From Phyllobates terribilis (taxonomy: Eukaryota): a stretch of 64,000 nt of DNA. Below the pieces are notes generated by a model that worked only from the letters and a program-made list of their open reading frames with translations, was not told the DNA's origin and ran no database searches. The position numbers and the translations under genes are program-made. Shown in pieces: positions 8,025 through 59,400 of the stretch (within the stretch, counting starts at the first letter, position 1; each line of letters starts with the position of its first letter). Location: positions 156,426,001 through 156,490,000 of the forward strand of contig NW_027362764.1 in assembly GCF_046119375.1 (NCBI RefSeq), given 5' to 3'.

Positions 8025-8026
8025 TC

Positions 8027-8992: not shown

Positions 8993-8999
8993 GTTAAAC
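8993..8999 (+). promoter_or_regulatory. Putative -1 ribosomal frameshift heptamer G TTA AAC (gag to pol)
   Basis: Immediately before the gag stop; the -1 frame is the protease frame. Confidence 0.7.
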
Positions 9000-13109: not shown

Positions 13110-13123
13110 TGAGTGGGGGGGCG
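13110..13123 (+). promoter_or_regulatory. G1 polypurine tract
   Basis: GAGTGGGGGGGCG directly before the TG of the 3' LTR. Confidence 0.8.
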
Positions 13124-16315: not shown

Positions 16316-16719
16316 GAGGACCGGGGAGCGGCGCTGCCTGTGCGGCTACTTCCGCTGCGAGAACCCGGGACATAGCGGGAGCTCGCAGCAGAAGTATCCC
16401 GACCCGCAGCGCCGCTCCCCGGTCCTCCCTTCCGCATGGAGGTCAGCGGCGCCGGCGGTCCTTCCGCTGCTACCGGCCGGGAGATGAGCGCCTCGCGCCG
16501 CTCATCTCCCGGCTGCATCTCTGTCCCGCAGATGGGTCCGGCGGTCGGGTTCCTTCTGCTGATACCGGCCGGGAGATAAGCGCCTCGTGGTGCTCATCTC
16601 CCGGCTGCATCGTCGCTCAGCTCCGTCCCGCAGATCAGCCGCTAACGGCCGCCATCTTTTTTCTGAAATCCCGCGGCGGTGATTGGCCGCTGCCGGACCA
16701 ATGAGCGACGCGGGATTTC

Positions 16720-18263: not shown

Positions 18264-18276
18264 GTTTGCACAGGCC

Positions 18277-22177: not shown

Positions 22178-25100
22178 GTACCCCCCCCCTTTAGGCCCCC
22201 CCTTTTTTAGGCCAGATAGAAATTTACCAAGGATGAGAGGGGCATGGATGTTCTCCTGGGGCTCCCACGTTCTCTCCTCAGGACCAAACCCCTTCCAATC
22301 TACTAGAAAAAAGGTCTTTCCTCTTACCCTTTTGGTGGCCAGAATGTTCTCTACCTCAAACTCGTTTTCAGCAGAAACCGGAGCAGGAGGCGTACCTGTA
22401 GACTTGGAAAAAGAGTTAAGTACCACGGGCTTGAGGAGAGATACATGGAAGGAATTAGGGATCCGCAAGTTGGCCGGGAGTTTCAATTTATAGGCCACCG
22501 GGTTGATCTGTTTGATAACCTCCAGTGGGCCGATGAACCGAGGCCCTAACTTGTAGGAAGGAACCTTGAGCCGGACATACTTGGACTAGAGCCAGACTTT
22601 ATCTCCAGGACGGAATTGTGGAGGATCCAGGCGTTTTTTGTCAGCGTGTTTTTTCATCCGCTCGGACAACTGAAGGAGTACGGACCGGGTACTCTCCCAA
22701 ATGGAGGAAAATTTGCTAACGAGAGATTTCGCAGCCGGATTGTCCACCGAGGTGGAGACGGGAAATGGGATCCTAGGATGCTGACCGAAGACTACAAAAA
22801 ACGGGAATTTGGAGGAAGATTCGCTCTCGTGATTATTGTAAGAGAATTCGCCCCATGGCAGGAGATCCACCCAGTCTGAATGGTGGGCATTAACGAAGTG
22901 CCGGAGGTAACTGGTCAGGATCTGATTGATCCGCTCCACTTGACCATTGGACTGTGGGTGGTAAGCGGAGGAGAAGTCCAGGGTGACGTCTAGCAGCTTA
23001 CATGTGGCTCTCCAGAAGCGTGAGGTGAACTGAACCCCACGATCCGACACGATGTGGAGGGGCAGGCCATGAAGACGGAAGATGTGGCGGATAAAGTCTT
23101 TAGCCAGCTCGGGTGCAGACGGGAGGCCTGGCAGGGGAATGAAATGAGCCATTTTGGAAAAGCGGTCAGCGACCACCCAAATGACCGTACAACCGGCAGA
23201 GACAGGGAGATCTGTTATGAAGTCCATAGCTATATGCTGCCAGGGGGCAGCAGGTACTGGAAGAGGAAGGAGGCGACCGGCTGGCAGGTGTCTCGAAACC
23301 TTGTTGCGGGCGCTGGACACACAGGCAGAAACAAAGTCTATTACGTCCTTGTGCAGGGTAGGCCACCAGTAGTGCCGGGTGATAAGCTGGAGGGTCTTTT
23401 TCTGACCGGCGTGGCCAGCTAGCTTAGACGAGTGACCCCAGTGTAGGATCTTCTCCCGATCAGGTACCGTTACGAACGTCTTACCGGGAGGGAGACGATT
23501 TAGACTCACGGGGGCCACCTGCATTACTCTGGCGGGATCGATGATGTGTTTAGGTTCCTCCTCAAGATCAGACACCAGGAAGGATCGGGACAAGGCGTCA
23601 GCTTTGATGTTTTTGTCAGCCGGGCGAAAATGAAGAACAAAATCAAAGCGAGCAAAAAACAAGGACCACCGGGCTTGGCGCGGGTTAAGTCTCTGGGCAC
23701 TCTGGAGGTAAGCCAAGTTCTTGTGGTCCGTGTAAATTATTACTGTGTGAAGAGCCCCCTCGAGCAGGTAACGCCACTCCTCCAATGCCAGCTTAATGGC
23801 CAATAACTCTTGGTCTCCTATAGAATAGTTGCGCTCAGAAGAGGAGAAGAGTTTGGAGAAGAAGCCGCAAGTTACCATTCTCCCGGAAGATGATTTTTGG
23901 GTAAGTACCGCTCCGGCTCCAGAGGAGGAGGCGTCAACTTCCAGGAAGAATTGCTTGTTGCCGTCCGGGCGATGCAGCACCGGGGCGGAAGAGAAAGCCT
24001 GTTTTAAGGAAAGAAAGGCTTCCTCTGCTTCGGGCGGCCATTCTCTTGGATTAGTGCCCTTACGGGTGAGCGCAGAGATTGGGGCAGTCCGGGAAGAGAA
24101 GTGCGGTATGAAGAGGCGGTAGTAGTTGGCGAAGCCCAGGAACCGCTGAATAGCCTTCAACCCCTCTCGTCGAGGCCACTTCTCGATGGCAGACAGTTTC
24201 TCAGGATCCATTCGTAGGCCGATCTGAGAAATTATGTAGCCCAAAAACGGAAGCGAGGTCTGCTCAAAGAGGCACTTCTCATATTTAGCATAGAGGTGGT
24301 TCTGCCTGAGCCTGAGCAGGACCTGACGAACGTCCCTCCGGTGAGTCTGGAGATCCGGAGAGAAGACCAAGATGTCGTCCAGGTACACCACTACGCAGGA
24401 GTAGAGAAGGTCCCGGAAGATGTCATTGACCAACTCTTGAAAGACGGCGGGAGCGTTACAGAGACCAAAGGACATTACCAGATATTCATAGTGGCCGTCC
24501 CGGGTGTTGAATGCCGTCTTCCATTCATCCCCCTGACGGATACGGACCAGGTTATAGGCCCCACGGAGGTCCAGCTTGGTGAAGATTCTAGCCCCCCTCA
24601 GACGGTCAAATAATTCCGGAATGAGCGGAAGGGGGTATTTATTCTTCACGTGATCTGGTTAAGGCCTCTATAGTCTATACAGGGACAGAGAGAGCCGTCC
24701 TTCTTTTTAACGAAGAAGAAGCCTGCTCTCGCCGGGGAGGTAGATTTTCGGATAAATCCCCGGGCCAGATTCTCCTCAATATATTCAGACATAGACCGGG
24801 TCTCAGCAGCGAACAACGGGTAAATACGCCCACGGGGAGGAGTAGTGCCGGGTAACAGGTCGATTGGGCAGTCGTATGGTCTATGAGGGGGTAATGTCTC
24901 TGCCTCCTTTTTATTAAAGACGTCCGCATAAGAGCAATAAGGAATCGGAAGTCCAGGTAGATTAGCTGGGGTAGGAGAAGGACGGACAGGATGGACGGGA
25001 ACTAAACAAGTCTTATGGCAGTCCTGTCCCCACCGAAGGACTTCTCCGGTCTGCCAATCAAGCACGGGTGCATGTCTCTGAAGCCAAGGTAGGCCTAGCA

Positions 25101-25446
25101 AGAGGGCGTGAGAGAGTCCAGGCAGAACATGAAAGAAGATGCTCTCAGAGTGCAGCATTCCCACCTGCAGAGTAATGGATTCGGTGATGAGTTGGATGGG
25201 ATGTGGTAAGAGACCCCCATCCACGGCAGCGACAGATAAGGGTACAGCCAGAGGTTTGGTGGGAATGCGGTATTTTTCTACCAGGGACTGAGAAATGAGA
25301 TTCCCGGCAGCTCCAGAGTCAAGTTGGGCTAGTTCAAAATAACGGTTCTCCCCGCAGATGATAGAGACCGACAGCAGCAGAGATGGAGAGGGTTAATTCT
25401 TGTCTAGGACGACCTCTCTGAGCGATCCTAGACACAGGCGTTTCCC
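22178..25446 (-). pseudogene. pol: Element B Pol with integrase-GPF/Y-chromodomain; one frameshift (~24650) and one stop (22586)
   Basis: YLDD; H..H/C..(S) zinc finger; DFIT, SDRG, VERIN; chromodomain EFEVENILA...LVDWKGFGPEERTWEP. Confidence 0.93.
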
Positions 25447-26325
25447 GACCTCTCCGGGCAGGTACGGATCCGGTGCTCCTTACTGCCACAGTAGAAGCAG
25501 CTCCCCTCAGCTCGGCGTAACTCTTGACGGGTTTTGACCATCTTGGTCTGGTCGACCTGCATAGGTTCGGGTGAGTGCGCCTGGGGAGTAGCGGGAGAAG
25601 AGACGGGTTTCTGAAAGGTAGGGGCTAGACGTGGAAACCTCCTCTCACGGGTGACCTCTTTGGCGCGCTCCTGGAACCGGATGTCAATCCGGGTGGCAAG
25701 AGTTATTAAGTCGTCGAGAGTGGTAGGAATGTCCCGACCGGCGAGTTCATCTTTAATACGGCCGGACAGACCCTCCCAAAAGACAGACACCAGGGCGTCA
25801 GGACAGCTCCGAAGCAAGGGTACGGAACCGTATGGCATATTGGCCCACGGTGAGATTTCCTTGATGGAGGCGTAGCAGAGATGATGCGGATGAGGTCTTC
25901 CGTCCGGGTTCGTCGAAGACTTTCCGGAAAGCCGTGAGAAAGGCTGGCAGGTCGGACACCAGGGGGTCTCCTCTCTCCCATAGAGGATTTAGCCAAGCCA
26001 GTGCCTTCCCCGTGAGATGGGACATAATGAAGGCTACTTTGGCCCGGTCAGAGATAAACTGGTGGGACAGGAGTTCAAACTGCAGGGTGCACTGGTTTAT
26101 GAAGCCCCGGGCTTGAGCGGGATCACCTCCGAAGCGAGGAGGTGCAGAAAGCCGGGGTCCGGGGCAGGATACCATGGTATTGGTGGGCAGCGGCGCTGCC
26201 GGGTTGCGAGTCATGACACTAGCGGTGGTTGCTGGTGGAGCAGTCAGAGTGTTCAGGCGAGAGTTGACATTCCGCAGGTGACTCAGGATGGACTCCTGTT
26301 GGGACCTCTGCCGGGACAGTTCATG
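25428..26325 (-). pseudogene. gag: Element B Gag, 5'-truncated and frameshifted
   Basis: APPRFGGDPAQARGFINQC; CFYCGSKEHRIRTC; GGGAAAC at 25446-25440. Confidence 0.9.
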
Positions 26326-28399: not shown

Positions 28400-29725
28400 G
28401 GGGCACATGACAGCTGTACAGATCAGCTGTCAGGAGGAATTTTGGTCCACTCCTCTTTGCAGATCATCTCTAAATCATTCAGATTTTGAGGCTGTCGCTT
28501 GGCAACTCGGAGCTTCAACTCCTTCCATAAATTTTCTATGGGATTAAGGTCTAGAGACTGGCTAGGCCACTCCATGACCTTAATCTGCTTCTTTTTGAGC
28601 CACTCCTTTGTTTTCTTGGCTGTATGTTTTGGGTCATTGTCTTGCTGGAAGACCCAGCCACGACCCATTTTTAATGTCCTGGTGGAGGGAAGGAGGTGGT
28701 CACTCAGGATTTTATGGTACATGGCTCCATCCATTCTCTCATTGATGTGGTGAAGTCGTCCTGAGTGTTTAGCAGAGAAACACCCCCAAATCATAATGTT
28801 TCCACCTCCATGCTTGACAGTGGGGATGGTGTTCTTTGGGTCATAGGCAGCATTTCACTTCCTCCAAACACGGCGAGTTGAGTTAATGCCAAAGAGCTCA
28901 ATTTTTGTCTCATTTGACCACAGCACCCTCTCCCAATAACTCACAGAATCATCCAGGTGTTCATTGGCAAACTTCAGACGGGCCTGCACATGTGCCTTCT
29001 TGAGCAGGAGGACCTTGTGGGCACTGCAGGATGTTAAACCTTTAAGAAGTAATGTGTTACCAATGGTTTTCTTGGTGACTGTGGTCCCAGCTGCCTTGAG
29101 ATCATTAACAAGTTCCACCTGTGTAGTTTTAGGCTGATCTCTCACCTTCCTCATGATCAAGGATACCCCACGAGGTGAGATTTTGCATGGTGCCCCAGAT
29201 CGATGTCGATTGACAGTCATTTTGTATTTCTTCCATTTTCTTACTATTGCACCAACAGTTGTCTCCTTCTCACCCAGCGTCTTACTTATGGTTTTGTAGC
29301 CCATTCCAGCTTTGTGCAGGTCTATGATCTTGTCCCTGACATCCTTAGAAAGCTCTTTGGTCTTGCCCATGTTGTAGAGGTTAGAGTCTGACTGATTAAT
29401 TGAGTCTGTGGACAGGAGTCTTTTATACAGGTGACTATGTAAGACAGCTGTCTTTAATGCAGGTAACGAGTTGATTAGGAGCGTCTAACTGGTCTGTAGG
29501 AGCCAGAACTCATAATGGTTTGTAGGGGATCAAATACTTATTTCTCACTGCAAAATGCAAATAAATGTATCTAATTAATACAATGTGATTTTCTTGATTT
29601 TTTTTGGATATTCTATCTCTCAATGTTAAAATTAACCTACCCTTAAAATTATAGACTGTTCATGTCTTTGTCAGTGGGCAAACTTACAAAAACAGCAAGG
29701 GATCAAATAATTATTTCCTTCACTG
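28400..29725 (-). mobile_element. Tc1 transposon, C-terminally truncated
   Basis: Terminus CAGTG|TA at 29725 with an inner direct repeat at ~29530; transposase ORFs. Confidence 0.92.
28423..29370 (-). pseudogene. Tc1 DD34E transposase (two pieces)
   Basis: [15 protein letters not shown]...GAPCKI; WSNETK; QQDNDPKHT; [15 protein letters not shown]. Confidence 0.93.
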
Positions 29726-30382: not shown

Positions 30383-31243
30383 CAGGGATGTCAAACTTAA
30401 ACACACAGAGGGTCAAAATGAAAAGCTTGGACAAAGTAGTGGGCCAACCAGTATACAGTATAATGCGCCTCACATAGTCCTCCATACAGAATAATGGGCC
30501 TCACATAGTCTTCCATACAGAATAATGGGCCCTCCATAGTCTTCCATACAGAATAATAGGCCCCACATAGTTCTCCATACAGTATAATGGGCCCAACATA
30601 ATACTCCATACAGAATAATGGGCCCCACATAGTCCTCCATACAGAAATAATGAGTCCAACATAGTCCTCCATACAGAAATAATGGGAACAACATTATCCT
30701 CCATACATAATAATGGGCCCCACATAGTCCTCCATACAGCATAACGGGCCTCACATAGTCCTTCATACAGAATAATGGCCCCCCTATAGTCCTCCATACA
30801 GAATAATAGGCCCCACATAGTTCTCCATACAGTATAATGGGCCCTACATAGTACTCCATACAGAATAATGGACCCCACATAGTCCTCCATACAGAAATAG
30901 TGGGCCCACACAGTCCTTCATACAGAATAATGGGTCCCACATAGTCCTCCATACAGAATAATGGGTCCCACATAGTCCTCCGTACAGAAATAATGGGTCC
31001 CACATAGTTCTCCATACAGTATAATGGGCCCTACATAGTACTCCATACAAAATAATGGGCTGCACATTGTTCTCCATACAGTATAATGGGCCTCACATAG
31101 TGCTCCATACAGTATAATGGCCCCACATAGTGCTCCATACAGTATAATGGCCCCACATAGGGGTGGCAGTTCTGGTGTCGGGGGCCAAATATAACCACCC
31201 TGAGGGCCAGATTTGGCCCACGGGCCGGAGTTTGACATGTGTA
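30383..31243. mobile_element. hAT (Charlie-type) MITE with perfect 8-bp TSD
   Basis: ATCTAGAT at 30375-30382 and 31244-31251; TIR core ATGTCAAACT / AGTTTGACAT. Confidence 0.9.
30455..31160. repeat. 29-30-bp minisatellite inside the hAT MITE (about 24 copies)
   Basis: CACATAGTCCTCCATACAGAATAATGGGCC unit. Confidence 0.92.
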
Positions 31244-38749: not shown

Positions 38750-39456
38750 CTAATTGCTCAAAAACCTGCAGTGGAGAATTGCATTCATGAAGAACCTGCA
38801 GTGGAGAATTGCATTCATGAAGAACCTGCAGTGGAGAATTGCATTGTTGAAGTAGAAGAACCTGCAGTGGAGAACTACAATGTTGAGCCTGAAGAATTTA
38901 CAATGGAGAATTGTGCTGTAGTAGCAGAAGAAACTATAATGGAGAATTGCAATGTAATATCAGAAGAGAAGAGCCTTTAATAGATAATTTATCATCATCA
39001 GAAGAATTGATAAATGAAAATATTGTTGAACCAGAGATCCTTGAAGAAATGATGCCTCCTCAAGATAACTGCTCAATATCGCCTTCTTTTGAAGATGTAT
39101 CTGACAGCATTGAGCAGAATGCATCTCCAAAACTTCCTGTTATTTGCTTAAATTATAGTAAATACAGGAAGTATAAGTAAAAAGAACAGTATGATCACTG
39201 GTCTGAAACTTCTGATGACGATATTGAATATATACGTTCATATACAGAGCCTCTCTCACATCAAAAAGATTTCCATTAAGATTTTCCTGAACCTCCCAGA
39301 TTATTACCAGAGGAAGTGAAACATTTTAAGGAGCTGACTACAGCAAATAGGTCAAAAAAGTCCTTTAGAAAGCACTCTGGTTCAAATAGTGGTCTATATG
39401 AAGCTGATGAAAATATGTTATGGCATCTAAAGGATCGTGAATACAACTGTAGTATA
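38750..39456 (+). pseudogene. Decayed acidic ORF of unknown origin
   Basis: EEPAVENC-type repeats. One 5-bp duplication frameshift (~38965), then about 160 codons with only two TAA stops. Confidence 0.5.
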
Positions 39457-39540
39457 CAGTGTCCATTTTAGGACATGATCAGATATCAAAATCAAACATC
39501 AGAATGATGTCAGTTTGAGGCTAAATACCCTGCCTGAGAA

Positions 39541-39820
39541 CTGATTCTGACGAGTGATTCTGACGAGTGATTCTGACGAGTGATTCTGACGAGTGATTTT
39601 GACAAGTGATTTTGACGAGTGATTCTGATGAATGATTCTAACGAGTGATTCTGACGAGTGATTTTGACGAGTGATTCTGACAAATGATTTTGACGAGTGA
39701 TTCGGACGAATGATTTTGACGAGTGATTCTGATGAGTGATTCTGACGAGTGATTCTGACGAGTGATTTTGATGAGTGATTCTGACGAGTGATTTTGATGA
39801 GTGATTCTGACGAGTGACTT
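39541..39820 (+). repeat. 13-bp tandem array (TGATTCTGACGAG), left arm, about 21 copies
   Basis: Direct reading. Confidence 0.93.
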
Positions 39821-39847
39821 TTACAACTGTAAAAAAAAAAGTAACTA

Positions 39848-39916
39848 TTCGTTGATGGGACTTGAACCCAAAATTCTGTGTCCCAAAGCCAGTGCACTAA
39901 ACACTAAGCTATTAAC
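39848..39916 (-). other. tRNA-like module 1 (nominal anticodon TGG), left arm
   Basis: TAGCTTAGTGTTTAGTGCA A-box/D-arm, TGGG-TTCAAGT-CCCA T-arm, then a T10 run. Confidence 0.75.
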
Positions 39917-40157
39917 TTACTTGTAAAACCCTTAGAGTTCTATTTGGTTCTATGATTTTCAGTGCAAAGTTGTCTAAAACTCATTGGGACGTATGCACAG
40001 ACTGCAAGCAAGCCAAATTCAAATGATGTTTGATTCTGATGTGTGAGTCTGAAGTGTGACTTTCTTCAAACATCAGAATCACAATAACTTTTAGTCACCC
40101 TGAGTATTTTCATGGTTTATCTCATAAGACAAGAAAAGCTACTAGTTGCTATCACTT

Positions 40158-40226
40158 GATTGGATAGCGCAATGGTAAGGTATCAGTCTCTCAAACTACA
40201 GTATGAGAGTTCAAATTCCGATAGGA
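40158..40226 (+). other. tRNA-like module 2 (Gln/Glu-like), left arm
   Basis: TAGCGCAATGG A-box, CTCTCAA loop, GAGTTCAAAT B-box, T6 at 40236. Confidence 0.7.
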
Positions 40227-40677
40227 ACAAGAATGTTTTTTAAATTATGACTGTTTAGCACACAAACTACAGGGGTATTTTACTTTTAATATCTGACACT
40301 GATTGTCATACTGATGTGTTAAGAGTTCAGACACGCTGACTATTTGCATGGTAAATTACATAGCCAAAGTAAATTGGGAGTTTGCAGCCCGTACTTGGGT
40401 GGATGGAAATAAATATTTACAATAAAGACATTTCATCATTAGACCCCTTTAAGAAATTATGCAAATATAAAGTCACTTGGAAATAGATATGTAGTAATTT
40501 ATTGCCTCCCAATTTACTTTGGCTATGTAATTTACCATGCAAATAGACAGCGTGTCTGAAACTCTTAACACATCAGGATGACAATCAGAGTGTCAGATAC
40601 TAAAAGTAAAACACCCCTGTAGTTTGTGTGCTAAATAGGCATAATTTAAAAAAAAAAAAAATAAATAATGATCTTCT

Positions 40678-40742
40678 TCCTATCAGGATTTGAACTCTGA
40701 CACTGTTCAGAGACTTATGCCTTACCATTGCGCTATCCATTC
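40678..40742 (-). other. tRNA-like module 2, right arm
   Basis: Reverse complement TAGCGCAATGGTAAGGC...CTCTGAA...GAGTTCAAATCC, followed by a long T run. Confidence 0.7.
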
Positions 40743-40854
40743 AAATGACAATAGTGGTAGCTTTTCTTGTCTTATGAGATCAACCATGAAAATACTCAGG
40801 GTGACTAAAAGTCATTATGATTGTGATTCTGATGTTTGAAGAAAGTCATACATA

Positions 40855-41174
40855 CAGTGTCCATTTTAGGACATGATCAGATATCAAAATCAAACATCAG
40901 AATGATGTCAGTTTGAGGCTAAATACCCTTTCTGAGAACTGATTTTGATAAGTAATTCTGACAAGTGATTTTGATGAGTGATTCTGACAAGTGATTTTGA
41001 CAAGTGATTTTGATGTCAAAATCACTCGTCAGAAACATTCGTCAGAATCACTCATCAGAATCACTCGTCAGAATCACTCGTCAGAATCAGTTCTCAGACA
41101 GGGTATTTAGCCTCAAACTGACATCATTCTGATGTTTGATTTTGATATCTGATCATGTCCTAAAATGGACACTG
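40855..41174. mobile_element. 320-bp miniature copy of the same TIR family nested in the right arm
   Basis: TA|CAGTGTCC...GGACACTG|TA with two opposed short 13-bp arrays. Confidence 0.88.
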
Positions 41175-41389
41175 TACTAACCAATAGTTTTTCTTGTCTT
41201 CTGAAATTAACCATGAAAATACTCAGGGTGACTAAAAGTTATTGTGATTCTGATTCTGATGTTTGAAGAAAGTCAGACATCAGACTCACACATCAAAATC
41301 AAACATCATCTGAATTTGGCTTGCTCGCAGTCTGTGCATAAGTCCCAATGAGTTTTAGACATATAACCAAATATAACTCCTAGGTTTTT

Positions 41390-41452
41390 ACAGCTGAGTT
41401 AGTGCACTGGCTTTGGGACACAGAATTTTGGGTTCAAGTCCCATCAGCGAAC
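41390..41452 (+). other. tRNA-like module 1, right arm
   Basis: TTAGTGCACTGGCTTTGGGACACAG...GGGTTCAAGTCCCA then a T run at ~41459-41471; the A-box is partly deleted. Confidence 0.7.
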
Positions 41453-41483
41453 AGTTACTTTTTTTTTTTTTATTACAGTTGTA

Positions 41484-41868
41484 AAAGTCACTTGTCAAAG
41501 TCACTTGTCAGAATCACTTGTCAAAATCACTTGTCAGAATCACTCGTCAGAATCACTCGTCAAAATCACTTGTCAGAATCACTTGTCAGAATTACTTGTC
41601 AAAATCACTCATCAAAATCACTTATCAAAATCATTTGTCAAAATCACTTGTCAGAATCACTTGTCAGAATCATTTGTCAAAATCTCTTATCAGAATCACT
41701 TGTCAGAATCACTCATCAAAATCACTTGTCAGAATCACTCGTCAGAATCACTCATCAGAATCACTCGTCAAAATCACTCGTCAAAATCACTTGTCAGAAT
41801 CACTCGTCAGAATCACTTGTCAAAATCACTCATCAAAATCACTTGTCAGAATTACTTATCAAAATCAA
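41484..41868 (-). repeat. 13-bp tandem array, right arm (about 30 copies, inverted)
   Basis: (GTCAGAATCACTC/T)n. Confidence 0.93.
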
Positions 41869-42929
41869 TTCTCAGACAGGGTATTTAGCCTCAAACTGAC
41901 ATCATTCTGATGTTTGATTTTGATATATTATCATGTCCTAAAATGGACACTGTAGATATGGTGGTTAGTTCTACTTTCCTTTTCGGCTCTGCTTTATGTT
42001 ATATGATCTGATTTATCAATTTAATTGTGGGGACTCTGCTATACTTTATAGGCAATTTTCAAAGTCCTATCCTTTTTCTTTTTCCCCATGGAGACCCTCT
42101 ATGAGCTATCTATAATGTAATGATAGAATCCACACTACACGATGCTGTACTGTGCACATGCGCATCTTTCTCTATCCCCGTAGGCATCCGGGAGCGCTCA
42201 GATCTGACCGCTTGCATTCCAGCATGCGGGTCAGTGAGCGCTTCCACCGAAAGCCTCTTTCACCTTAGGGGAGGAGCAGATGCCTCATGCACTGATAAGG
42301 TCCGGTAAATGTCTCACCCTATTTTCCCTGGACGCTTTCATAGGCTGTCACGCTATATGGAAAGATGTCCACCCCTCACCCTGACACTCCCCTGGAAGAA
42401 GCAAGCAGTCGAAACACGCGTCGGGATGAAGGGGGGCGGAATCCTGCTCTGGATCCTAGACTTTCCTCATTTGGCTCCTTTCCTTGCACCATTTTACACC
42501 AGGTATACAGTTTTTACTCTAACACTTTCCCTCTAGTACTATTAATAGTCATTATGGCTTCTATAAGTGTTTGGGCATTATTTATTTGGATCTGAACACA
42601 GGGTTATATTCTAGCCCATTATAAGATCTTATATTGTACCTACTATACCATAGACAGCCACTAATCATGTATACTATGGTGGGGAACATGTTATAACGGA
42701 GTTTTCTATATATATTGATATACTAGATTAGGCTATTTGCATATATTTTTGAGCCTGCATTATATTTGGATCCTTAGTCAGGAGCTAGTCCCTCGTACTG
42801 GGCACTCTATTTTTTTTTCTTATTGACTGATAAAATAAAATTGATTATTTTATATTTTTGGATCTCTTCGTTTCTCTGCTCTAGGAATGTAGGGCAGGAT
42901 TAGTGGATTATGAATTTGTTTGAAGTGCC

Positions 42930-47470: not shown

Positions 47471-47844
47471 TAAAATGAACAAAGGCTGGATTGGGCCAGA
47501 CTTCTCAACACCACTGAATGAAAGCAGCGTAACATAAACTCAAATCCAGTGTCTTTTTTTGGAAGGTGTATTCCCTTGCACCTTTTCACACCCACACATG
47601 GGTATACGCTTCCTGATTTTGGCTATTTGCTCTTGTCCTCCTCCTTCTCTTCATCCTCCACCACCATATCACCAGGGTGACCATGGTCCGTGATGCAACA
47701 CCCACATACGTTTTTTAAAGGGTGTTTATGATGCCTGTAAACATTTTTTTTTATACAGTATGTTCATGTATACCCCCCAGGGGTAAATGTTTGTCAGGCC
47801 ATACATTTAGTGCATGGGCATTACAAGTATAGGAGACCCGCTCC

Positions 47845-48470
47845 TTTCTAATGGGAACATTTTTTTATGAGGCCCTCCTCCACGTCATTTCCAATGTGCA
47901 TTGGAGTGCCTCCCAATTTTTGGCAGCCCTTGCATTCACTGCATAGGCCAACACTATGGGAGACCCACTTCCTAATAATGGGAACATTTTTTCATGAGGC
48001 CCTCTACTTCTCTTCCAAGGGGCATTGGAGCGCCTCACAATTTTTGGTAGTCCTTGCATTCACTGCATAGGCCAACACTATGGGAGACCCACTTCCTAAT
48101 AATGGGAACATTTTTTCTTGAGGCCCTCTGACCTTCACGTCTCTTCCAAGGGGCATTGGAGTGCCTCCAATATTTTGGCAACCCTTGCATTCACTGCATA
48201 GGCAAGCACAATGGGAGACCCACTTCCTAATAATGGGAACATTGTTTTTAGGAGGTCCTCTGACCTCCACATCTCTTCCAAGGGGCATTGGAATGCCTCC
48301 AAATTTTTGGCAGCCCCACAAATTTTTTTTTCAGGAGGCCCTGCTCTACGTCTCTTCCAAGGGGCATTGGAGTAGGTCCAAATTTTTGGCAGCCCTTGCA
48401 TTCACTGCATAGGCAAACAGTATGGGAGACCCTCTTCCTAGTAATGGGAACATTGGAGACCCACTCTATA
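47845..48470. repeat. ~124-132-bp tandem repeats in the hAT 3' region (about 5 units)
   Basis: CTTGCATTCACTGCATAGG recurs at ~47929, 48053, 48185 and 48395. Confidence 0.88.
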
Positions 48471-48771
48471 GTAATGGGAGCAACAAAGCATAGCCGGCTG
48501 ACTGCTTTCTAACAATAGTGAGGGCTGACTGCTGGCCCTTTAAGAATAGTAAAGGCCGCCTGATGGCCCTATAAAAATAGGTTTTGTGACTTTCAGAGTC
48601 CCTCCTTCATAAATGAAAAAGGATATGTCTGATCATGTCTCACACACCACATGGCCAGATAAGGTTGTAAAATGTTAAAACGGTACAAGCCAAAATAACC
48701 ACTGTTGTATGGGTTAAGGCCCTTTAAGGTACATATAGGTAAACAGGGAGTGACATCACATGAAAGTTCAT

Positions 48772-49693
48772 GAGCGGAGCGAGACTGCAGGAGCAGTGAG
48801 CAAAGGGTCAGAGCGGAGCAGGACTACCGGAGCAGTGAGCAAAGGGTCAGAGCAGAGCAGGACTGCCGGAGCAGTGAGCAAGGCAGAGCAGGGGGACAGG
48901 GCTCTGTTCACACGGAACAGACAGGAAGGGAAAGGCAGAACCAGATACCCACAGGGTACTTGCAGTGAAGCAGCGAGTGGACCACAAACTCACAAACGGA
49001 AGTACAGTGACAACGAGCAGGAGTTAGGTACGAGTTCAGACTCTGCAGAAAAAGGGAAGGTACTGACATAGAGAAAAACAGGAAACAGGCTAGGAGAGTA
49101 TTCAGACAAGAACAAACACAGCAGCAAGATACAGGAGCGGGTCTAGGTATGCGGCCCCTAGAAGGCGGAACAAACAGGCTAGGAGCGTGTTCAGACAGGA
49201 ACAGGCAAGATACAGGAACGGGTCTAGGTATGCGGCCCCTAGAAGGCGGAAAGAACAGGCTAGGAGCGTGTTCACACAGGCCTGGAAATACAGCCTCCAG
49301 GATAGGCAGAAGACAACAGGCTAGAAGATAATACAGACAGGACACAGTTCAGACACGGGAACTGATACCGAAGGCAGGAAACATAAACGGGACCTGGCAT
49401 ATCAGTGACCAGAAGCCAACTGACAGAACACAATGCTCAGGCAGGGTTTCCTGGGAGGAGCTGGGTTAAATACCAGGTGACAGACAGCAATAGGCTGAGG
49501 ACGCACAAGGGGTGTGCCCGCAGCAGGTACAAGAAACAGGAAGTGATCGGGCGCCACCCTTAAGCAGCAGAAACAGAGGCAAGCAAACAGCATGGAGGGA
49601 AGCCAGGCTAGCAGACTGGACTGGAGATCAAGTGCGCACTCTTGCACAGTGGGAGATGGACAACTATGCAAGGACGCCACCAGGTATGTTACA
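48772..49693 (-). repeat. Element C 3' LTR (distal part deleted)
   Basis: About 98% identical by eye to 51960-52880. Confidence 0.92.
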
Positions 49694-51200
49694 GTACCCC
49701 CCCCCTACGCCCCCTCTTCTTCAGGCCTGCCAGAATGTTCCGCAGGGAATTCGGGGGCCAATCCTTCACTTCAAGGAGATCACTTCCACTGTCCACAGGA
49801 AAAACTGGTCTCATCTGAGTAGCTAGGATGCTACCTCCTATCCAGCCATCCTCAGCAACAGACGAAACGGGTGGAGTACCAGGAACAGTACACAAGGAAG
49901 TCTCTCTCCACATATTTTCAGGTGGCACCCCAGAGGGTTCAGGAGACAACTGGAAGTCCTCCGCAAGGTTGGAGGGGTGCAGAGACTCGGGGGTAACCTC
50001 TGCTTCAGAGTACACTAGGTCGGACTCGCTGGAAGAAGCGGGTGAGGTATCAGGTACTGAGTATAGGAGAGTCCCTGTCCATTCGCTATCAGGTAGCACC
50101 CCAAAGGGTTCAGGAGACAACTGGAGGTCCTCCGCCTGGTCGGAGGGGTGTAGAGACTCGGGGATAACCTCTGCTTTGGAGTACACTAGGTTGGACTCAC
50201 TGGACGAAGCGGCCGAGGTATCAGGTACAGAGTATAGGGAAGACTCTGTCCATTTGCTACCAGGTAGCACCCTGAAGGGTTCTGGAGACAACTGGAGGTC
50301 CTCCGCCTGGTCGGTGGAGTGTAGAGACTCGGGGGTAGCTACCGCTTTAATGTACCCATTGACAAGCTCACAGGATGGAGCGGACGAAGTATCGGGTACC
50401 GGGTGTAGGGAAGTCTCTCTCCATTTGTCATCAAGTGGTATCCCGGAGGATTCAGGAGGTAAGAAGAGGTGCACAGACTCGGAGGTAATCACTGCTTCGG
50501 AGCACCCTTGGACAGGCTCACTGGTTAAAGTGGGTGAAGTATCAGATACCGGGTGCAGGCAGTCCTCCTGTGTGGATTCTGGGTGGGCAGTAGTCTCTTC
50601 GGGCAGGAGAACTGGTGCGCTACCCACGCACATTACCCGTCGGGGCTGCTCCGGGATACCAGAAAATGAAGCTTCAGCAGGAACCTCAAGGTTGGGATCA
50701 GGAGGTCTTTGGGAGGACAGACCCTGGCGTGACGGCTTGCCTCTACGCCTAGCACGTCTGGACTGCCTCTTGAGGTTGGGAGAAGTATTCCGGAGAGCGT
50801 AGTCATCCTGTGTGGATTCTGGGTGGGCAGTAGTCTCTTCGGGCAGGAGGACTAGTGCGCTACCCACACACATTACCCATCGGGGCTGCTCCGGGATTTT
50901 GGGAAGTGAAGCTTCAGCAGGGGTCTCCGGGTTAGGGTCATCGAAGACCATTAGAAAGGCCACCAGGAAGGCCTGAAGGTCCAGGAGGATAGGATCCTGT
51001 GTTTCCCATAGGGGGTTGATCCATTCCAAGGCATCACCCGCTAGGTTAGACATAATGAATCCCACCTTAACCCGATCGGTGGGAAAACAAAGAGGGTAGA
51101 ACTTGAAGTGTAGCAAGCATTGCTCCACAAATGCACGGCTTTGTTTTGGATCCCCATAATACCGTGGCGGATCCGCAGGAACGAGTGCTGATAGATCCAT
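49689..51200 (-). CDS. Half-Gag / acidic repeat / degenerate chromodomain fusion protein (~503 aa from ATG 51200)
   Basis: Stop-free frame 51269-49689; DPPRYYGDPKQSRAFVEQCLLHF...KVGFIMSNLAGDALEW; 80-aa and 57-aa period repeats. Confidence 0.75.
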   Translation of the reverse strand: MDLSALVPADPPRYYGDPKQSRAFVEQCLLHFKFYPLCFPTDRVKVGFIMSNLAGDALEWINPLWETQDPILLDLQAFLVAFLMVFDDPNPETPAEASLPKIPEQPRWVMCVGSALVLLPEETTAHPESTQDDYALRNTSPNLKRQSRRARRRGKPSRQGLSSQRPPDPNLEVPAEASFSGIPEQPRRVMCVGSAPVLLPEETTAHPESTQEDCLHPVSDTSPTLTSEPVQGCSEAVITSESVHLFLPPESSGIPLDDKWRETSLHPVPDTSSAPSCELVNGYIKAVATPESLHSTDQAEDLQLSPEPFRVLPGSKWTESSLYSVPDTSAASSSESNLVYSKAEVIPESLHPSDQAEDLQLSPEPFGVLPDSEWTGTLLYSVPDTSPASSSESDLVYSEAEVTPESLHPSNLAEDFQLSPEPSGVPPENMWRETSLCTVPGTPPVSSVAEDGWIGGSILATQMRPVFPVDSGSDLLEVKDWPPNSLRNILAGLKKRGRRGGVL

Positions 51201-51338
51201 CTGGACGGTTGCGTAATTCGCCTGGAACTCAGCTGGTAGCAAAAAAAAAAAAATTTCCTCTAGATGCACGTATTCGCTGGAAAAAGTCTCAGAGAGCGAA
51301 GGCCGTGGGGCTCAACGGGAACCATGGCCTGAGCATGC

Positions 51339-52880
51339 TGTAATGCACATGCCCGGGCTGAGTGGCGTGTGCGTGTGTATGTAGTGATTCCACTGTGCCA
51401 TGAACCGGAGAGTGCCTGGAGGGGCGTAACTAAGTATCTGCCTGATCCGACCAAGGTCGCACGACGCCATACGTCGGCAGTGCACCAGGGAGGAACCGGG
51501 CAGAGGGACCAGGTGCTACTCCAGGTCAGACCCCGGACACGGCTGTTGACCCACACCAGGGAATACTGGAACAGGCAGGTTAGGCTGGCACACCGACTGG
51601 TGAGTATAGGCAGACACGGCTGGAATACAGACGGGTGGATGCTGGTAAGCACGACTGGTATGCAGGCAGGGAGGTACTGGCAGGTACGACAGGCTGGAGC
51701 ACCGAGTTGGTAGGACCCAGTACAGACTGGGACTAAGGAACAGAACTGCAGACGCGGTGGACAAACAACAGGGTGAGGCCGCCCAGAGCGGCGAGCAAGA
51801 GCAGAACAAGACGAGACCGCCTGGAGCGGTGAGCGAGAGAAGAGCAGGACAAGGCCACTTGGAGCGGTGAGCGAGAGAGGAGCAGGACGAGACTGCCGAA
51901 GCAGTGAGCAAAGGGTCGGAGCAGAGCGAGACTGCCGGAGCAGCGAGCAAAGGGTCAGAGCAGAGCGAGACTGCCGGAGCAGCGAGCAAAGCGTCAGAGC
52001 AGAGCGAGACTGCCGGAGCAGCGAGCAAAGGGTCCGAGCGGAGCAGGACTGCCGGAGCAGTGAGCAAGGCAGAGCAGGGGGGACAGGGCTCTGTTCACAC
52101 GGAACAGCCAGGAAGGGAAAGGCAGAACCAGATACCCACAGGGTACTTGCAGTGAAGTAGCGAGTGGACCACAAACTCACAAACGGAAGTACAGTGACAA
52201 CGAGCAGGAGTTAGGTACGAGTTCAGACTCTGCAGAAAAAGGGAAGGTACGGATATAGAGAAAAACAGGAAACAGGCTAGGAGAGTATTCAGACAAGAAC
52301 AGACACAGCAGCAAGATACAGGAGCGGGTCTAGGTATGCGGCCCCTTGAAGGCGGAACGAACAGGCTAGGAGCGTGTTCAGACAGGAACAGGCAAGATAC
52401 AGGAACCGGTCTAGGTATGCGGCCCCTAGAAGGCGGAAAGAACAGGCTAGGAGCGTGTTCACACAGGCCTGGAAATACAGCCTCCAGGATAGGCAGAAGA
52501 CAACAGGCTAGAAGATAATACAGACAGGACACAGTTCAGACATGGGAACTGATACCGAAGGCAGGAAACATAAACGGGACCTGGCATATCAGTGACCAGA
52601 AGCCAACTGACAGAACACAATGCTCAGGCAGGGTTTCCTGGGAGGAGCTGGGTTAAATACCAGGTGACAGACAGCAATAGGCTGAGGACGCACAAGGGGT
52701 GTGCCCGCAGCAGGTACAAGAAACAGGAAGTGATCGAGCGCCGCCCTTAAGCAGCAGAAACAGAGGCAAGCAAACAGCATGGAGGGAAGCCAGGCTAGCA
52801 GACTGGACTGGAGATCAAGTGCGCGCTCTTGCACAGTGGGAGATGGACCACTATGCAAGGACGCCGCCAGGTATGTTACA
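51339..52880 (-). repeat. Element C 5' LTR (1542 bp) with 39-bp tandem repeats
   Basis: TGTAACATAC...GCATTACA; TATTTAA at 52659-52653; repeats at ~51780-52070. Confidence 0.92.
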
Positions 52881-54965
52881 CAGGATTCTTCTTCGTCAAG
52901 AAAAAGGACGGCTCTCCTCGCTCTTGTATTGATTATATGGGTCTAAATCAAATCACAGTCAAGAACAAGTATCCTCTGCCCCTCATCTCCGAGCTGTTTG
53001 ATCGCCTCAAAGTTGCAAAGATCTTCACTAAGCTCGATCTTCGTGGCGCATACAAACTTATCTGGATTTGCCAGGGAGATGAGTGAAAGGAGTCATTCAA
53101 CACTAGGGAAGGCAACTATGAGTACCGCGTGATGCCCTTCGGACTCTGCAATGCACCAGCAGTCTTCCTGGAACCAGTGAATGACATCTTCCGATATCTT
53201 CTATAATCCTGTGTGGTAGTGTACCTGGACGATATCCTGGTGTTCTCTTCTGATCTGCCCTCACATCAAAGAGACGTACAACAGGTATTGCAGAGGCTCA
53301 GGAAGAATCGTCTGTATGCCAAATTCGAGAATTGCGTTTTGGAACAGACTTCACTCCCATTCCTTGGATACATAATCTTGGAGACCGAGCTTAAGATGGA
53401 CCCTGAAAAAGTGGCTGTAGCTCTTAAATGACCCCGACCTGAGGGGTTGAAGGTTACTCAGCGGTTTCTGGGATTTGTTTATTATTACCGCCTGTTCAGT
53501 CCTCATTTTTCCTCCCGGACTGCTCCCATCTCTGCCCTGACCTGCAAAGGTGTGAATCCCAAGGAATGGACCCCCGAAGCGGAAAGTGCCTTTGTGTCCT
53601 TGAAACAAGACTTCTCTTCAGCTCCGGTACAACATCGTCCTGACTGTAACAAGCAGGTCTTCCTAGAGGTTGATGCCTCTTCCTCTGGGGCTGGAGCAGT
53701 TCTCACCCAGAAATCCTTGTCTGGGCGAATGGTGACCTGCGGCTTCTTTTCCAAGCTCTTCTCTCCTTTGGAGCGCAATTATTCCTTTGGAGATCAAAAA
53801 CTGCTTGCCATCAAACTGACACTGGAGATGTGGCGGCTTTTGCTGGAGGGGGCCTTGCATCCGGTGGTCGTCTACATGGACCACAAAAGTCTCGCCTACT
53901 TGCAGTCCACCCAACGACTCAATCCTAGTCAGGCCAGATGCTCTTTGTTCTTTGCCTGCTTCAATTTCTCTCTTCACTTCCATCCAGCAGACAAGAATAT
54001 TGAGGCAGATGCGCTCTCCCAATCATTCCTGTCCACTGATCAAGAGGAGGAGCCTCAGCACATCATTGAGCCCTCCAGAATAATGACTGTCGCCCCATTT
54101 GACCTGTCTCATTTTCCTCCTGGTAAGACCTTTGTGGCGGCACCGGATAAGAAAAGGGTCTTGTTCTGGGGTCGTTCGTCTAAACTGGCAGGTCATGCTG
54201 GTGAAAGGAAGACGCTTCTGCTAATTTCCCAACATTACTAGTGGCCGACCCTGCGCAAGGAGGTTGCGGATTTTGTCTCGGCTTGCTCTTCCTGTGCCCA
54301 AAACAAGACGCCGAGACCACTTCTGACTGGTTAACTTCTTCATCTACCCATGCCTTCCGCTCTGTGGCAAAATATTGCGATGGATTTCATCACAGATCTT
54401 CCTGTATCGGCCGGTTGTATAGTCATTTGGGTGATCGCTGACCTCTTCTCCAAGATTGCCCATCTCATTCCCTTGCCGAGTCTTCCTTCTGCTCCAGTGC
54501 TAGCTAAAGATTTCATCCTTCACATCTTCCATCTCCACGGCCCACCTCCTACCTTTTATATCATCTCAGATAGAGGACTTCAATTTACCTCACGCTTCTG
54601 GAGAGCCACGTGCAAGCTGCTGAATGTCGCTCTGGACTTCTCATCGGCCTATCATCCACAGCCAATGGCCAGGTTGAGCATATCAATGAGATCCTCACTA
54701 GCTTCATTCGGCACTTTGTCAACGTTCACCATAGCGACTGGGTGGAGCTTCTGCCTTGGGCCGAATTTTCCTACAATAACCACGTGAGTGAATCCTCAGC
54801 CAAATCGCCGTTCTTTGTGGTGTACGGTCAGCACCCCAATATTCCGTTTCCTGCCTCTACTTCCGTTGACAATCTTGCTGCAGAGTCTCTCATCAAAGAC
54901 TTTTCTGTGATTTGGGAGGATACTAAATCTACGCTGCTGCAGTCCTCTGAGCGAATGAAGAGACA
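52881..54965 (+). pseudogene. pol: Tf1/sushi element D, RT-RNaseH-integrase remnant
   Basis: [11 protein letters not shown]; YLDD; FLEVDAS; MDFITDLP; SDRG. Multiple stops and frameshifts. Confidence 0.92.
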
Positions 54966-54967
54966 CG

Positions 54968-55370
54968 GACCCGTAACAGTTTGCACAGGCCATGGAATTC
55001 AGTGGTTCCCAGGCTCCCTCGCTCTCTGACCTGTACCAAGCGGTCTCCCACCAGAGAGCTCAACAGGATACAATCCTGTCCTACCTATGGACTGTAAACT
55101 CCCGCTTGGATGCACTGTCCACCCCGGCTGTGGCCGCGTCTAACTAAGTGACCGCTCCGGCGGCACCTCCACTCAGTAGCGGTGTGGCACCCAGCTTTGG
55201 ACCCTGACTATCGGCTCCTCCACACTTTGGCGGTGGTCTATGTCGGGGCTTCATCAACCAGTGCACACTGCACTTTGTGCTCTTGGCTCATCAGTTCACT
55301 TCTGACCGGGCTAAAGTGTCATTCGTCATGTCTCATCTCACCGGAGAGGTGTTGGCTTGGCTCAATCAAC
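54968..55370 (+). mobile_element. LTR tip, PBS region and gag start of an element-A-like copy
   Basis: GGACCCGTAACAGTTTGCACAGGCCATGGAA is identical to 18252-18282 and is followed by decayed gag. Confidence 0.85.
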
Positions 55371-56814: not shown

Positions 56815-57049
56815 GACTCGCCCCCTGGGCCGTGGGGCACTCGGATCCGGGCAATAGGGGGAACGATGGGAGTAGTAGTGGCAACCCGGTTCCGTGGCTC
56901 AGGGTGGTCAGGCCAGTGGTAGTCCGTTATGTGTTATTAATTATGTCCGACTACACCACCCGTGGATTGCGGTTATTAGGAACCGCCGCTGCATGCAGAC
57001 CGCTGGGGCTGATGAGGTGTGCAGCTAGGGTAGTGTGACTCCCCACGGG

Positions 57050-58452
57050 AAGAGTCTCGAAGTTTCGGTGCCCTAGACAGCATTCCATCAGCCGCTGGAA
57101 GGTCCCTGGTGCGTTGCAGAGCCCGAAGGGCATACAGTTGAATTCACTCAGTCCCATCGGGGTGGTGAAGGCGGTCTTCTCCTTGTCAGCCTCTGCCACA
57201 GGAACCTGCCAGTACCCGCTAGTAAGGTCCAAAGTAGAAAAGAAGTTAGCTGATTTTAGTGCGGCTAAAGACTCCTCTATTCTAGGCAGCGGGTATGCGT
57301 CTTTGTGGGTGATACGGTTGATTTGTCTATAGTCCACGCACATTCTCATGGTGCCGTCTTTCTTTTTGACCAGAACCAAGGGGGCTGCCCAGGGGCTACA
57401 GCTGTCTCTAATGACCCCAGCTTCCTTCATCTCTCTTAGCATGCCCTTTGCGTTCTGATAATGTGCAGGGGGTACAGGTCGGTGTCTTTCCTTTATCGGT
57501 GGGTGGCTCCCTGTGGGGATGTGGTGTTCTATCCACGTGGAGTCAGCACCCACGTGGAGTTTCTGGCACCAGTCCTCCTTTTGTTTCTGGGAGCCATTAC
57601 CCTCCGACTGAGGAGATGGAGGCAAGGGTTCCACGGCCCTGATAGCTTGGTGTTCGACAACAAACAGTTTGGCGAGTGTAGCGTACCTGGGTAAGTGTAC
57701 TTCCCTCTCCCCAATGTTGAGGATGCGGACGGGCACCCTCCCATGACGGACATCAACCACCCCCCGGGCTGTCAAAATGGTGGGCCTGCTGTCTGAGTAC
57801 ACGGGTTCTACCATGGCTTGGTAGTCTCTACCTCTCAACCCGATTGCAGTCCGACACCAGATCATCATTTCACTTTTGGGAGCCATGGAAATGGGGAATG
57901 GATCACTGAGTCTTACGCTACCGATCTCACCACCAGACAGTTCTACCTGCTGCCGTCTCATCAGGGCTTTTATCTCCTTGTTGAGGACTCTCTTTTGGCT
58001 GGAACTAGCATTCACCGCCACCTGTTGTAGAATTACAATTACCTCTGAAAGACAATTTTCAATTATGTTAGTACCCACAGTTATTTTAGGGTGACTTTCA
58101 TGACGGTCAATGTCCACAATAATCACTCCCTGTGCGGCAGTTCAACTTTACCAATTTTTATGGTCATCTCCTTGAACCCCATCTGTGGCACGGGTAAGCC
58201 ATTACTGGCGATGATGCTCAAGTTACTGTCTGGATACCGTGTGATATCAACATCAGTCCAATACTGCTTAAAAAGTACATAAGGGATTGTGGTTACTTGC
58301 GACCCAGTATCCAGCAAGGCGCTCATGGGGATACCGTCCAGCACCACGGGTAAAACCGGGCGCCCCCCAACGTACTTATCGCGCCAATTATAAGGGCCTG
58401 GTGATCTTATGCCTGGGGGTCGGCCCTCTGCCCCAGGTTGGACCCGTTTAAA
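57050..58452 (-). pseudogene. pol: Element E protease and N-terminal RT
   Basis: LLDTGSQ; SPWAAPLVLVKKKDG; [15 protein letters not shown]; ends at NFET before YLDD. Confidence 0.9.
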
Positions 58453-59400
58453 TTACAGTACCTGGAAATGTGTCCGGGCTGGTTGCATCGACGGCAAATG
58501 GGCTGTCCATCCTCTGCGTAGCGGTCTGTGGGCCTCCCTCGGAACGACGGGATCCTCCTCTGTCGACGCCACGGGACATCCTCCAGACTTGAAGCCAGCT
58601 CGATGGGTCTTGACGGGTCCACTTGCAACGCCTGGACGGTCCTGGTCAACGCCGCGACGCTCCTGGTCAGCTCCTGGACTTGGTGGTGCAGGCCTTTCGA
58701 CGGGGCTTGGTTCAGGGCCTGTGCATCAGCCTCCACGGAGTCCATAGAGGAGGGCGCCGCCTCCTGGTGGTAGGTGATAGCAGGGCGCCGGGGGTTTATA
58801 GCGCCACTGGTTGCAGATTCACGGAGCACCCTTATGGCCCTGTCCTTAAATTGGGCAAAGGTCAGGTCGGGGTTCTGGAAGGACATGAGGCGCAGCTGGG
58901 CCCTGTGGGCGCTGGACAGCAGACCCTCTATGAATTGTTCTGTTAGCAGCTTATCGGTTTCCTGCACACTGCCAGGGTCAGTTTGTTGAATAGCCCTCAA
59001 GGCTTCCTGTAAATTTAAGGCATAGTCTCTGATGCTGTCCTGTGCCCGCTGCTTACATCCATAGAACCTCATTTTAATCTCAGCGGAGGTACGTGTATCA
59101 AAGGTACCCCGCAGCCGGGCCAGAATACCCTTCACAGTCCCTTTTCTTCTCAATGGGCCATGATTTTACCTCCCTTTGGGCTGCGCCAGTTAACTGCCCT
59201 GTCAATATGCTGACCTTCTGTTCCTCTGTCAGGGGGTAAACCTGGAACAAACTGTATAGCCTTTCCTTGAAGTCAGTTAGGGCATGGGGCTCCCCTGAGT
59301 ACTTGGGCAGCCAGGCCGCTCCAGGGATGTAGGGCAAGGAAAAGGGCATCACCGCTGCTGCAGCTGCGTTGGTGGTAGTGGGCGCCTCTGTGTCCGACAT
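58407..59400 (-). pseudogene. gag: Element E Gag with CCHC knuckle, one frameshift (~59150)
   Basis: LPKYSGE; CRRCNQPGHISRYC; T TTA AAC heptamer at 58452-58446. Confidence 0.88.

Follow-up and report, generated by a model that had tools for sequence, protein, structure and literature searches.

An open reading frame for a Gag capsid N-terminal lobe, moderately maintained in the replicating lineages of a pol-less, chromovirus-type LTR retrotransposon family of Phyllobates terribilis

A 64-kb stretch of the Phyllobates terribilis genome (contig NW_027362764.1, positions 156,426,001 to 156,490,000; here called the window) harbors, on its minus strand, a long terminal repeat (LTR) element composed of a 5′ LTR, a short interior and a 3′ LTR (Table 1). 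As an earlier reading of this DNA, based on its letters only (the sequence-only reading), had described, the 1645-bp interior (49694-51338) is devoid of protease, reverse transcriptase (RT), RNase H and integrase domains and is occupied by one open reading frame (ORF) of 503 amino acids (aa) from ATG 51200. This description was confirmed by tblastn of the ORF against the window, which matched only Gag N-lobes and an integrase tail, and by Pfam, which matched DUF4939 alone (residues 11 to 86); Rfam returned no match. The ORF was also said to end 3 nt into the 3′ LTR, and its stop codon is indeed formed by nucleotides 3 to 5 of that LTR. The reported LTR identity of about 98% stands outside the 39-bp array (798/812 positions, 98.3%) and falls to 97.2% (897/923) overall, and the 3′ LTR corresponds only to the first 923 bp of the 5′ LTR, its U5 end being short by about 620 bp with the break point inside the 39-bp array; the notion of two complete LTRs was dropped on account of this truncation. 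No target site duplication (TSD) was found for the window copy, whose intact end adjoins the RT of another chromovirus pol (52881 onward). Because the upstream part of that pol is not present at the opposite end of the element, the LTR tail and the TSD were probably lost by deletion. Neither AATAAA nor ATTAAA was found in a search of the element's LTR.

Table 1. Features of the LTR element and of its apparent insertion target (positions within the window)
Feature	Position	Strand	Basis or remark
5′ LTR	51339..52880	-	1542 bp, TG...CA; internal 81-, 39- and 38-bp tandem arrays; sister copies with the same ends
TATA-like box TATTTAA	52653..52659	-	About 30 nt before the self-primer; retained across subfamilies
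Inferred transcript start/self-primer	52620..52629	-	10 nt complementary to the primer-binding site; start itself inferred
Self-priming primer-binding site	51327..51336	-	Sequence
21-codon upstream ORF	51260..51325	-	Opens at the ancestral Gag start codon
T-tract + YAG, 3′ splice site-like	51233..51253	-	AG kept behind several differing upstream motifs; candidate only
Single ORF, 503 aa	49689..51200	-	ATG 51200, stop 49691-49689
Gag capsid N-terminal lobe, aa 11-89, complete	50934..51170	-	DUF4939, Gag identity, structure model
Basic patch, aa 143-155	50736..50774	-	Sequence
Two 140-bp blocks, spacing 240 bp (80 codons), 87% alike	50561..50940	-	
171-bp (57-codon) acidic Pro/Ser/Glu repeats	49861..50479	-	Copy-to-copy variation in number
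Eroded integrase chromodomain tail, aa 441-501	49698..49880	-	Colinear with relatives up to the polypurine tract
Polypurine tract	49694..49719	-	Sequence
3′ LTR, truncated, about 923 bp	48771..49693	-	Comparison with the 5′ LTR
Broken chromovirus pol (RT, RNase H, integrase), apparent insertion target, outside the element	52881..54967	+	

The element belongs to a large family. An exact 26-nt sequence spanning the junction of the LTR and the primer-binding site (PBS) has 3,073 matches in the 10.6-Gb genome, a lower bound on copy number given the exact match required, and its reversed control has none. Sixty stretches around the first junction matches on one contig (C1) were sampled, a set which leans toward young copies for the same reason; four had no 3′ LTR start inside the stretch, leaving 56 scorable copies. 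Probes for protease, RT, RNase H and integrase detected pol in none of these 56 interiors (1.1 to 3.3 kb), and the sister copies share paired TG...CA LTRs, a PBS and a polypurine tract (PPT). Perfect 5-bp TSDs flank 37 of the 48 copies with both ends, as well as 14 of 18 such copies that were refetched, and the median LTR divergence is 1.3%. Full copies mostly measure 5.0 to 6.2 kb, and open ORFs occur in many length classes of about 414 to 908 codons. A tree resolves several subfamilies, in which the window copy is one tip, with a short branch, of a star-like burst. From these features the family is classified as a non-autonomous, pol-less LTR retrotransposon family of the Tf1/sushi (chromovirus) type, its chromovirus descent being read from Gag, PBS, PPT and tail, as the element carries no RT for phylogeny. 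It occupies at least about 15 Mb of this giant genome (3,073 copies of about 5.5 kb, solo LTRs not counted). Separately, a cluster of at least 12 near-identical family copies was observed on the sampled contig at 209.40-211.08 Mb (L024-L030, L064-L066, L068 and L069), several of which follow one another at about 3.9 kb, a spacing suggestive of shared LTRs; L041, L046 and L048 also contain tandem forms.

The elements of replication retained by the family are consistent with self-priming of the Tf1/sushi kind. The TATA-like box and the PBS-complementary 10-mer are conserved across subfamilies with a diverged spacer between them, and two autonomous-type families carry matching, compensatory changes on both sides of the pairing between R and PBS, which backs the self-priming proposed for this family; a third such family has the same pairing as this one. 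Copy number, TSDs, the absence of pol and this covariation together support the suggestion of the sequence-only reading that the element is a mobile parasite of chromoviruses, and its self-priming PBS, PPT and chromodomain remnant likewise hold.

Translation of the ORF would have to pass a leader which from the inferred start measures 1.4 kb and contains eight upstream ATGs. The ATG at which Gag ancestrally started, immediately next to the PBS, is today the beginning of an upstream ORF (uORF, 51325-51260) which terminates before the main ATG in 54 of the 56 sampled copies, and the long ORF uses a second ATG; in a few copies (L015, L016 and L159), a private indel joins the uORF in frame to the main ORF. 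A T-tract followed by YAG is located between the two ATGs, and splicing to this acceptor-like site is a guess. In 50 LTRs searched downstream of the inferred start, no strong splice donor proved to be conserved, except for one motif, present in 30 of them at about 100 nt from the end of the LTR, which the window copy did not score. Four sequencing runs (three guessed to be RNA and one unknown, available as contigs only, such that strand, level and RNA origin are not readable from them) span all 30 bins, and none of the 15 joints inspected among the 54 in those runs falls at the acceptor-like site.

The encoded protein is predicted to begin with a whole capsid N-terminal lobe. Residues 11 to 89 are about 50% identical to autonomous-type Gags, and DUF4939 matches the N-lobe at E=1e-8; the Pfam family Retrotrans_gag matches the autonomous-type Gag and not the 503-aa ORF. 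A structure model of residues 1 to 110, built from 100 sequences, is confident across residues 11 to 90 (mean predicted local distance difference test score, 85). It superposes on the capsid N-terminal domain of Ty3 (6r22) with a Z of 7.2 and a root mean square deviation (rmsd) of 2.4 over 74 of 74 residues, and on dArc1 with a Z of 9.4 and an rmsd of 2.5 over 76 residues, Z values which, taken by themselves, are average for a helical domain. Capsid lobes of Arc, PNMA, Ty, PEG10/MOAP1 and retroviruses make up the 35 best structural matches of the model. Foldseek returned nothing at E<=0.001, with capsid lobes ranked highest, and the leads from the ESM Atlas (DUF7041, DUF4939 and Retrotrans_gag) all stayed under 0.9. 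Since, in a family profile, the C-lobe of PEG10 starts at the point where homology to the ORF stops, the N-lobe is judged to be complete, with neither C-lobe nor zinc knuckle behind it, as had been proposed.

Downstream of the N-lobe, a duplicated 80-codon block surrounds the basic patch and is followed by 57-codon acidic repeats and a chromodomain-like tail; the basic patch and the acidic Pro/Ser/Glu repeats named by the sequence-only reading are thus present (residues 143 to 155; 171-bp repeats, along with a 240-bp duplication). An antisense open frame of 327 aa over the repeats (49819-50802, plus strand), which has no Pfam match, is read as a by-product of those repeats. The tail is 35% identical to the integrase chromodomain end at window positions 22396-22184, and six of eight autonomous-type tails outscore all 1000 shuffles in comparison with it when the PPT-coded end is excluded. 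An intact chromodomain was considered and rejected, as the tail has no Pfam Chromo match, an intact control matching at E=2e-12. The aligned tail also has another residue in place of the tryptophan of the VDWKG motif, which would contribute to the methyl-lysine cage. A full phmmer scan yielded 917 matches at E<=0.001, of which the best 150 cover essentially the N-lobe alone (one reaches residue 212 and one residue 146); no protein of the same architecture from another species was seen, the 20 of these 150 that were inspected being ordinary Gag or Gag-Pol types. Word-indexed homologue searches with the whole ORF or residues 1 to 110 found no match among proteins of 276 to 881 aa.

The open frame is not special to the window copy; it is ordinary in the family. 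A frame from the ATG to within eight codons of the 3′ LTR was retained in 27 of the 56 sampled copies, and in the set formed by window-like copies and a second subfamily, which counts the window copy itself and 12 loci from a single duplicated cluster, 9 out of 47 scorable loci were open. A neutral decay model, in which age is half the LTR divergence, expected 23.6 of 46 copies to be open and 23 were observed, a fit which is partly circular as the rates of private stops and frameshifts were taken from the same data. The age difference between open and broken copies is not significant (p=0.22), and at its age the window copy had about a 45% chance of staying open. Decay after insertion therefore fits neutrality. 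The sequence-only reading had set the open element against the broken autonomous relatives in the window, and the three chromoviruses concerned are indeed broken (longest frames, 475, 690 and 269 aa); this contrast says little, because the relatives are larger mutational targets.

Evidence of constraint comes instead from the lineages that gave rise to new copies. It was assessed in a set of 93 copies, all of which were kept with one per duplicated cluster, over codons 1 to 165 and 443 to 496. The ratio of nonsynonymous to synonymous variants is 228/78 among singletons and 70/43 among variants present in at least five copies (p=0.015); for the N-lobe, the corresponding counts are 85/29 and 36/27 (p=0.019), or 75/25 and 28/23 once CpG-prone columns are removed (p=0.016). 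Stops account for none of 113 shared variants versus 10 of 316 private ones (p=0.07). A two-class codon model (custom code, fixed tree, recombination between copies ignored) estimated the omega of the N-lobe at 0.46 for internal branches, which differs from 1 with p=3e-4, and at 0.72 for terminal ones. As controls, four off-frames gave 1.15 to 1.46; the antisense frame which shares third positions gave 0.59, and the tail 0.61 (p=0.08). Small ORF indels point the same way, with 53 frameshifting and 17 in-frame events among private indels and 2 and 8, respectively, among those in at least four copies, where the two frameshifting events (+1 and -1) form a pair that lies within one region and has equal counts. 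Shared LTR indels, which serve as the control, number 37 and 10, a contrast to the shared ORF indels with p=8e-4, which is approximate, because duplicates in the alignment and compensating pairs figure among the shared events. In addition, 59 of 77 large indels are in frame, and eight positions that are nearly invariant across the Gag family are conserved in 90 to 93 of the 93 copies. We conclude that source lineages maintain the frame and, moderately, the sequence of the N-lobe. The importance attributed to the ORF by the sequence-only reading thus holds for the replicating lineages of the family and not for the window copy. That reading had also proposed that routine disruption of other copies and a dN/dS near 1 would mean that the open frame only reflects young age; about half of the copies are disrupted and their decay is neutral, yet for the N-lobe the dN/dS on internal branches is clearly less than 1.

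The explanation we favor, at somewhat less than an even chance as a whole, is that the window holds a truncated copy of a parasite family whose N-lobe is under moderate selection, likely through co-assembly into the particle of a helper chromovirus in a manner that favors the family's own RNA. That there is a parasite family whose ORF is selected, the first half of this explanation, is very probable; the co-assembly role commands about half of that confidence. Transcription would start about 30 nt past the LTR TATA box, and the first 10 nt of the RNA, complementary to the PBS, are presumed from Tf1/sushi biology to serve as the primer of reverse transcription in place of a tRNA. A chromovirus would supply the whole capsid, RT, RNase H and integrase in trans, in keeping with the absence of pol and the 5-bp TSDs, and the ORF would be translated beyond the leader and uORF, perhaps from spliced RNA. 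The N-lobe may then enter the helper lattice, as RTL8 does with PEG10, the long acidic tail standing in for the C-lobe and nucleocapsid, after which each inserted copy would decay as the neutral fit describes. Because selection acts on successful lineages, the ORF is expected to benefit the element, and by analogy, entry into a helper lattice would be the simplest benefit of a capsid N-lobe. A more specific version, in which a dedicated half-capsid adaptor docks in helper capsids and loads or favors parasite RNA, thereby enabling thousands of copies, appears rather doubtful.

Several results weigh against this explanation. Besides the simplifications of the codon model, a first test with 37 copies showed no signal (p=0.72 and 0.70; N-lobe, p=0.27 to 0.30), internal and tip omega of the N-lobe differ only at p=0.07 (whole segment, p=0.04), and the count signal sits in transitions (transversions, p=0.30). 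The dN/dS between 57-codon units is 0.68, which is not below that of one off-frame (0.50). The linker of residues 93 to 165, which includes the basic patch, has an omega of 0.99 and no sign of constraint, so that the patch as a conserved RNA tether is unsupported and the corresponding step of the mechanism is weakened. A close helper was likewise not found: the N-lobes of the autonomous type show about 50% identity, their synonymous sites being saturated, and no match was obtained for an intact chromodomain motif together with the family's exact LTR start. A looser pattern gave 107 matches, of which the 30 inspected all have different LTRs; six matches to a PBS variant all belong to the same parasite family; and none of 20 autonomous-type loci fetched contains an intact gag-pol. 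Finally, RTL8 lowers PEG10 particle yield rather than exploiting the particles (PMC11684626). With the basic patch unconstrained and RTL8 itself an inhibitor, two other readings of the ORF stay live.

In one of these, which we consider unlikely, the N-lobe protein would poison capsid assembly as RTL8 does, as a control of the family's own copy number or a brake on competing autonomous chromoviruses. The truncation is like that of RTL8, which binds the N-lobe of PEG10 (PMC11684626), a candidate acceptor-like site would yield a PBS-less mRNA acting in trans, and the fetched autonomous-type loci lack an intact gag-pol; however, selection is seen on successfully amplified lineages, which need helper capsids, and broken helpers are expected anyway from their larger mutational target. 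Of similar standing is the idea that it is mainly an open frame reaching the 3′ LTR that is selected, by escape from nonsense-mediated decay or by translation-linked packaging, with the protein doing little. Frame conservation is the strongest signal obtained, the ORF always ends at or inside the 3′ LTR, repeat number is free to vary, and the omega values of the linker and the tail (the latter not significant) are as this idea would have them, but amino acid constraint limited to the N-lobe and the retained core residues would be left unexplained, and simple avoidance of decay is already at odds with the uORF and the long leader.

An absence of selection, the frame being a relic of an in-frame deletion from Gag to integrase and the signals arising from RNA constraint, recombination or model bias, seems less probable again. 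It would accommodate the neutral decay of inserted copies, the null result with 37 copies and the repeat units in multiples of three, which preserve the frame unaided, whereas the frame-specific omega, counts that are independent of CpG and the contrast in shared indels between ORF and LTR speak against it. The sequence-only reading had further raised an intermediate toward domestication. Domestication of the window copy as a host gene of the LDOC1/RTL8 type would suit its short tip branch and a choice of domain like that of the mammalian half-capsid genes (PMC11011659), but the copy is one of thousands, young (LTRs 98% identical), with a truncated 3′ LTR and repeat-filled surroundings, and about 45% of copies of its age would be open by chance. 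As the tip of a burst with an ordinary open frame, it was rejected as a domesticated gene, a reading to which we leave only a very slight probability. The interest thus lies in the family and not in the window copy.

Other mobile elements were noted in the window. A Gypsy element at 7246-13890 (plus strand) has LTRs at 7246-8028 and 13123-13890 that are 96% identical, and stops are the only interruptions in the single frame of its pol (227, 882 and 419 aa; RT, RNase H and integrase by Pfam). The three broken chromovirus relatives lie at 17251-21100 (plus), 21876-26160 (minus) and 52881-55367 (plus), with pol regions 72 to 76% alike; that at 22-26 kb bears a full chromodomain motif, its last 71 codons being uninterrupted. 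At 54963-55367 (plus), the pol of 52881-54967 is followed directly by the end of an LTR, a PBS and the start of a Gag, in an arrangement that is either rearranged or tandem. A Gypsy remnant at 56951-59165 (minus) encodes RT and a weak PNMA-type Gag match (E=1e-4, below the cut-off), and remnants of hAT and Tc1/Sleeping-Beauty-type transposases are located at 541-1197 (plus) and 28855-29484 (minus). Palindromic arrays at 14365-16432 (67-bp), 30453-31160 (31-bp), 39454-41960 (13-bp, inside long inverted repeats) and 47786-48455 (124-bp) are probably parts of non-autonomous DNA transposons.

Elements with a single Gag ORF and no pol are known from other hosts. The TR-GAG elements of plants are non-autonomous LTR elements with PBS, PPT, 5-bp TSDs and one Gag ORF, for which no matching autonomous partner was found (PMC4350172). 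They carry a Gag precursor within less than 4 kb (PMC4350172), whereas the present family encodes only the N-lobe together with repeats and an integrase chromodomain remnant, reaches about 5 to 6 kb through its long LTRs, and inhabits a vertebrate. Zebrafish BHIKHARI (Bik-1/Bik-2; PMC12067270) and Xenopus 1A11/Xretpos (PMC4585706) are, as those sources describe them, vertebrate pol-less LTR elements with a single Gag-like ORF that is intact in a minority of copies, and Bik-1 was mobilized in trans (PMC12067270). BHIKHARI is presented there as lokiretrovirus-related, with a coiled coil, a capsid domain and shown developmental roles; the present family, known here from its sequence, derives from the Metaviridae, is self-priming, has half a capsid and numbers thousands of internal copies. 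With the V-clade chromoviruses of the Tf1/sushi type (PMC6317226), it shares the self-priming PBS, LTR ends, PPT, the Gag N-lobe (about 50% identity) and the ancestry of its integrase chromodomain tail, and it differs from them in the loss of protease, RT, RNase H and integrase core, in a chromodomain unmatched by Pfam and in a largely unalike LTR.

The analogy drawn by the sequence-only reading to Ty1 p22 concerns the other half of the capsid: p22/p18 is likewise a truncated Gag made by the element itself, but p22 comprises the C-terminal lobe and arises from an internal start of an autonomous element, whereas here the N-lobe is encoded by a separate, non-autonomous family (PMC11684626). That to mammalian RTL8 and LDOC1 is apt, since these also keep the sushi-type N-lobe, having lost the C-lobe and nucleocapsid, with diversified, disordered neighboring regions (PMC11684626 and PMC11011659), and the incorporation of RTL8 into PEG10 particles is a precedent for the entry of an N-lobe on its own (PMC11684626). 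A full-text literature search returned no report of a mobile N-lobe-only family (0 matches for DUF4939), and Repbase may already file one. Gag-only LTR elements are therefore known from plants, zebrafish and Xenopus and N-lobe-only genes from mammals, and what appears to be new is a mobile family with the N-lobe only. Thousands of dated copies in many subfamilies offer a natural data set on the use of a half-capsid by a parasite, as adaptor or as decoy. RTL8 and LDOC1 are domesticated, orthologous host genes, unlike the decaying copies of this mobile element, and the mammalian half-capsid genes are taken to have been truncated soon after domestication (PMC11011659). A high-copy mobile family under selection shows that N-lobe truncation can also arise and be maintained in a selfish element; were the adaptor role to prove true, the family would be a mobile counterpart of RTL8 and LDOC1, and half-capsid genes may be shaped inside selfish elements before their domestication by a host.

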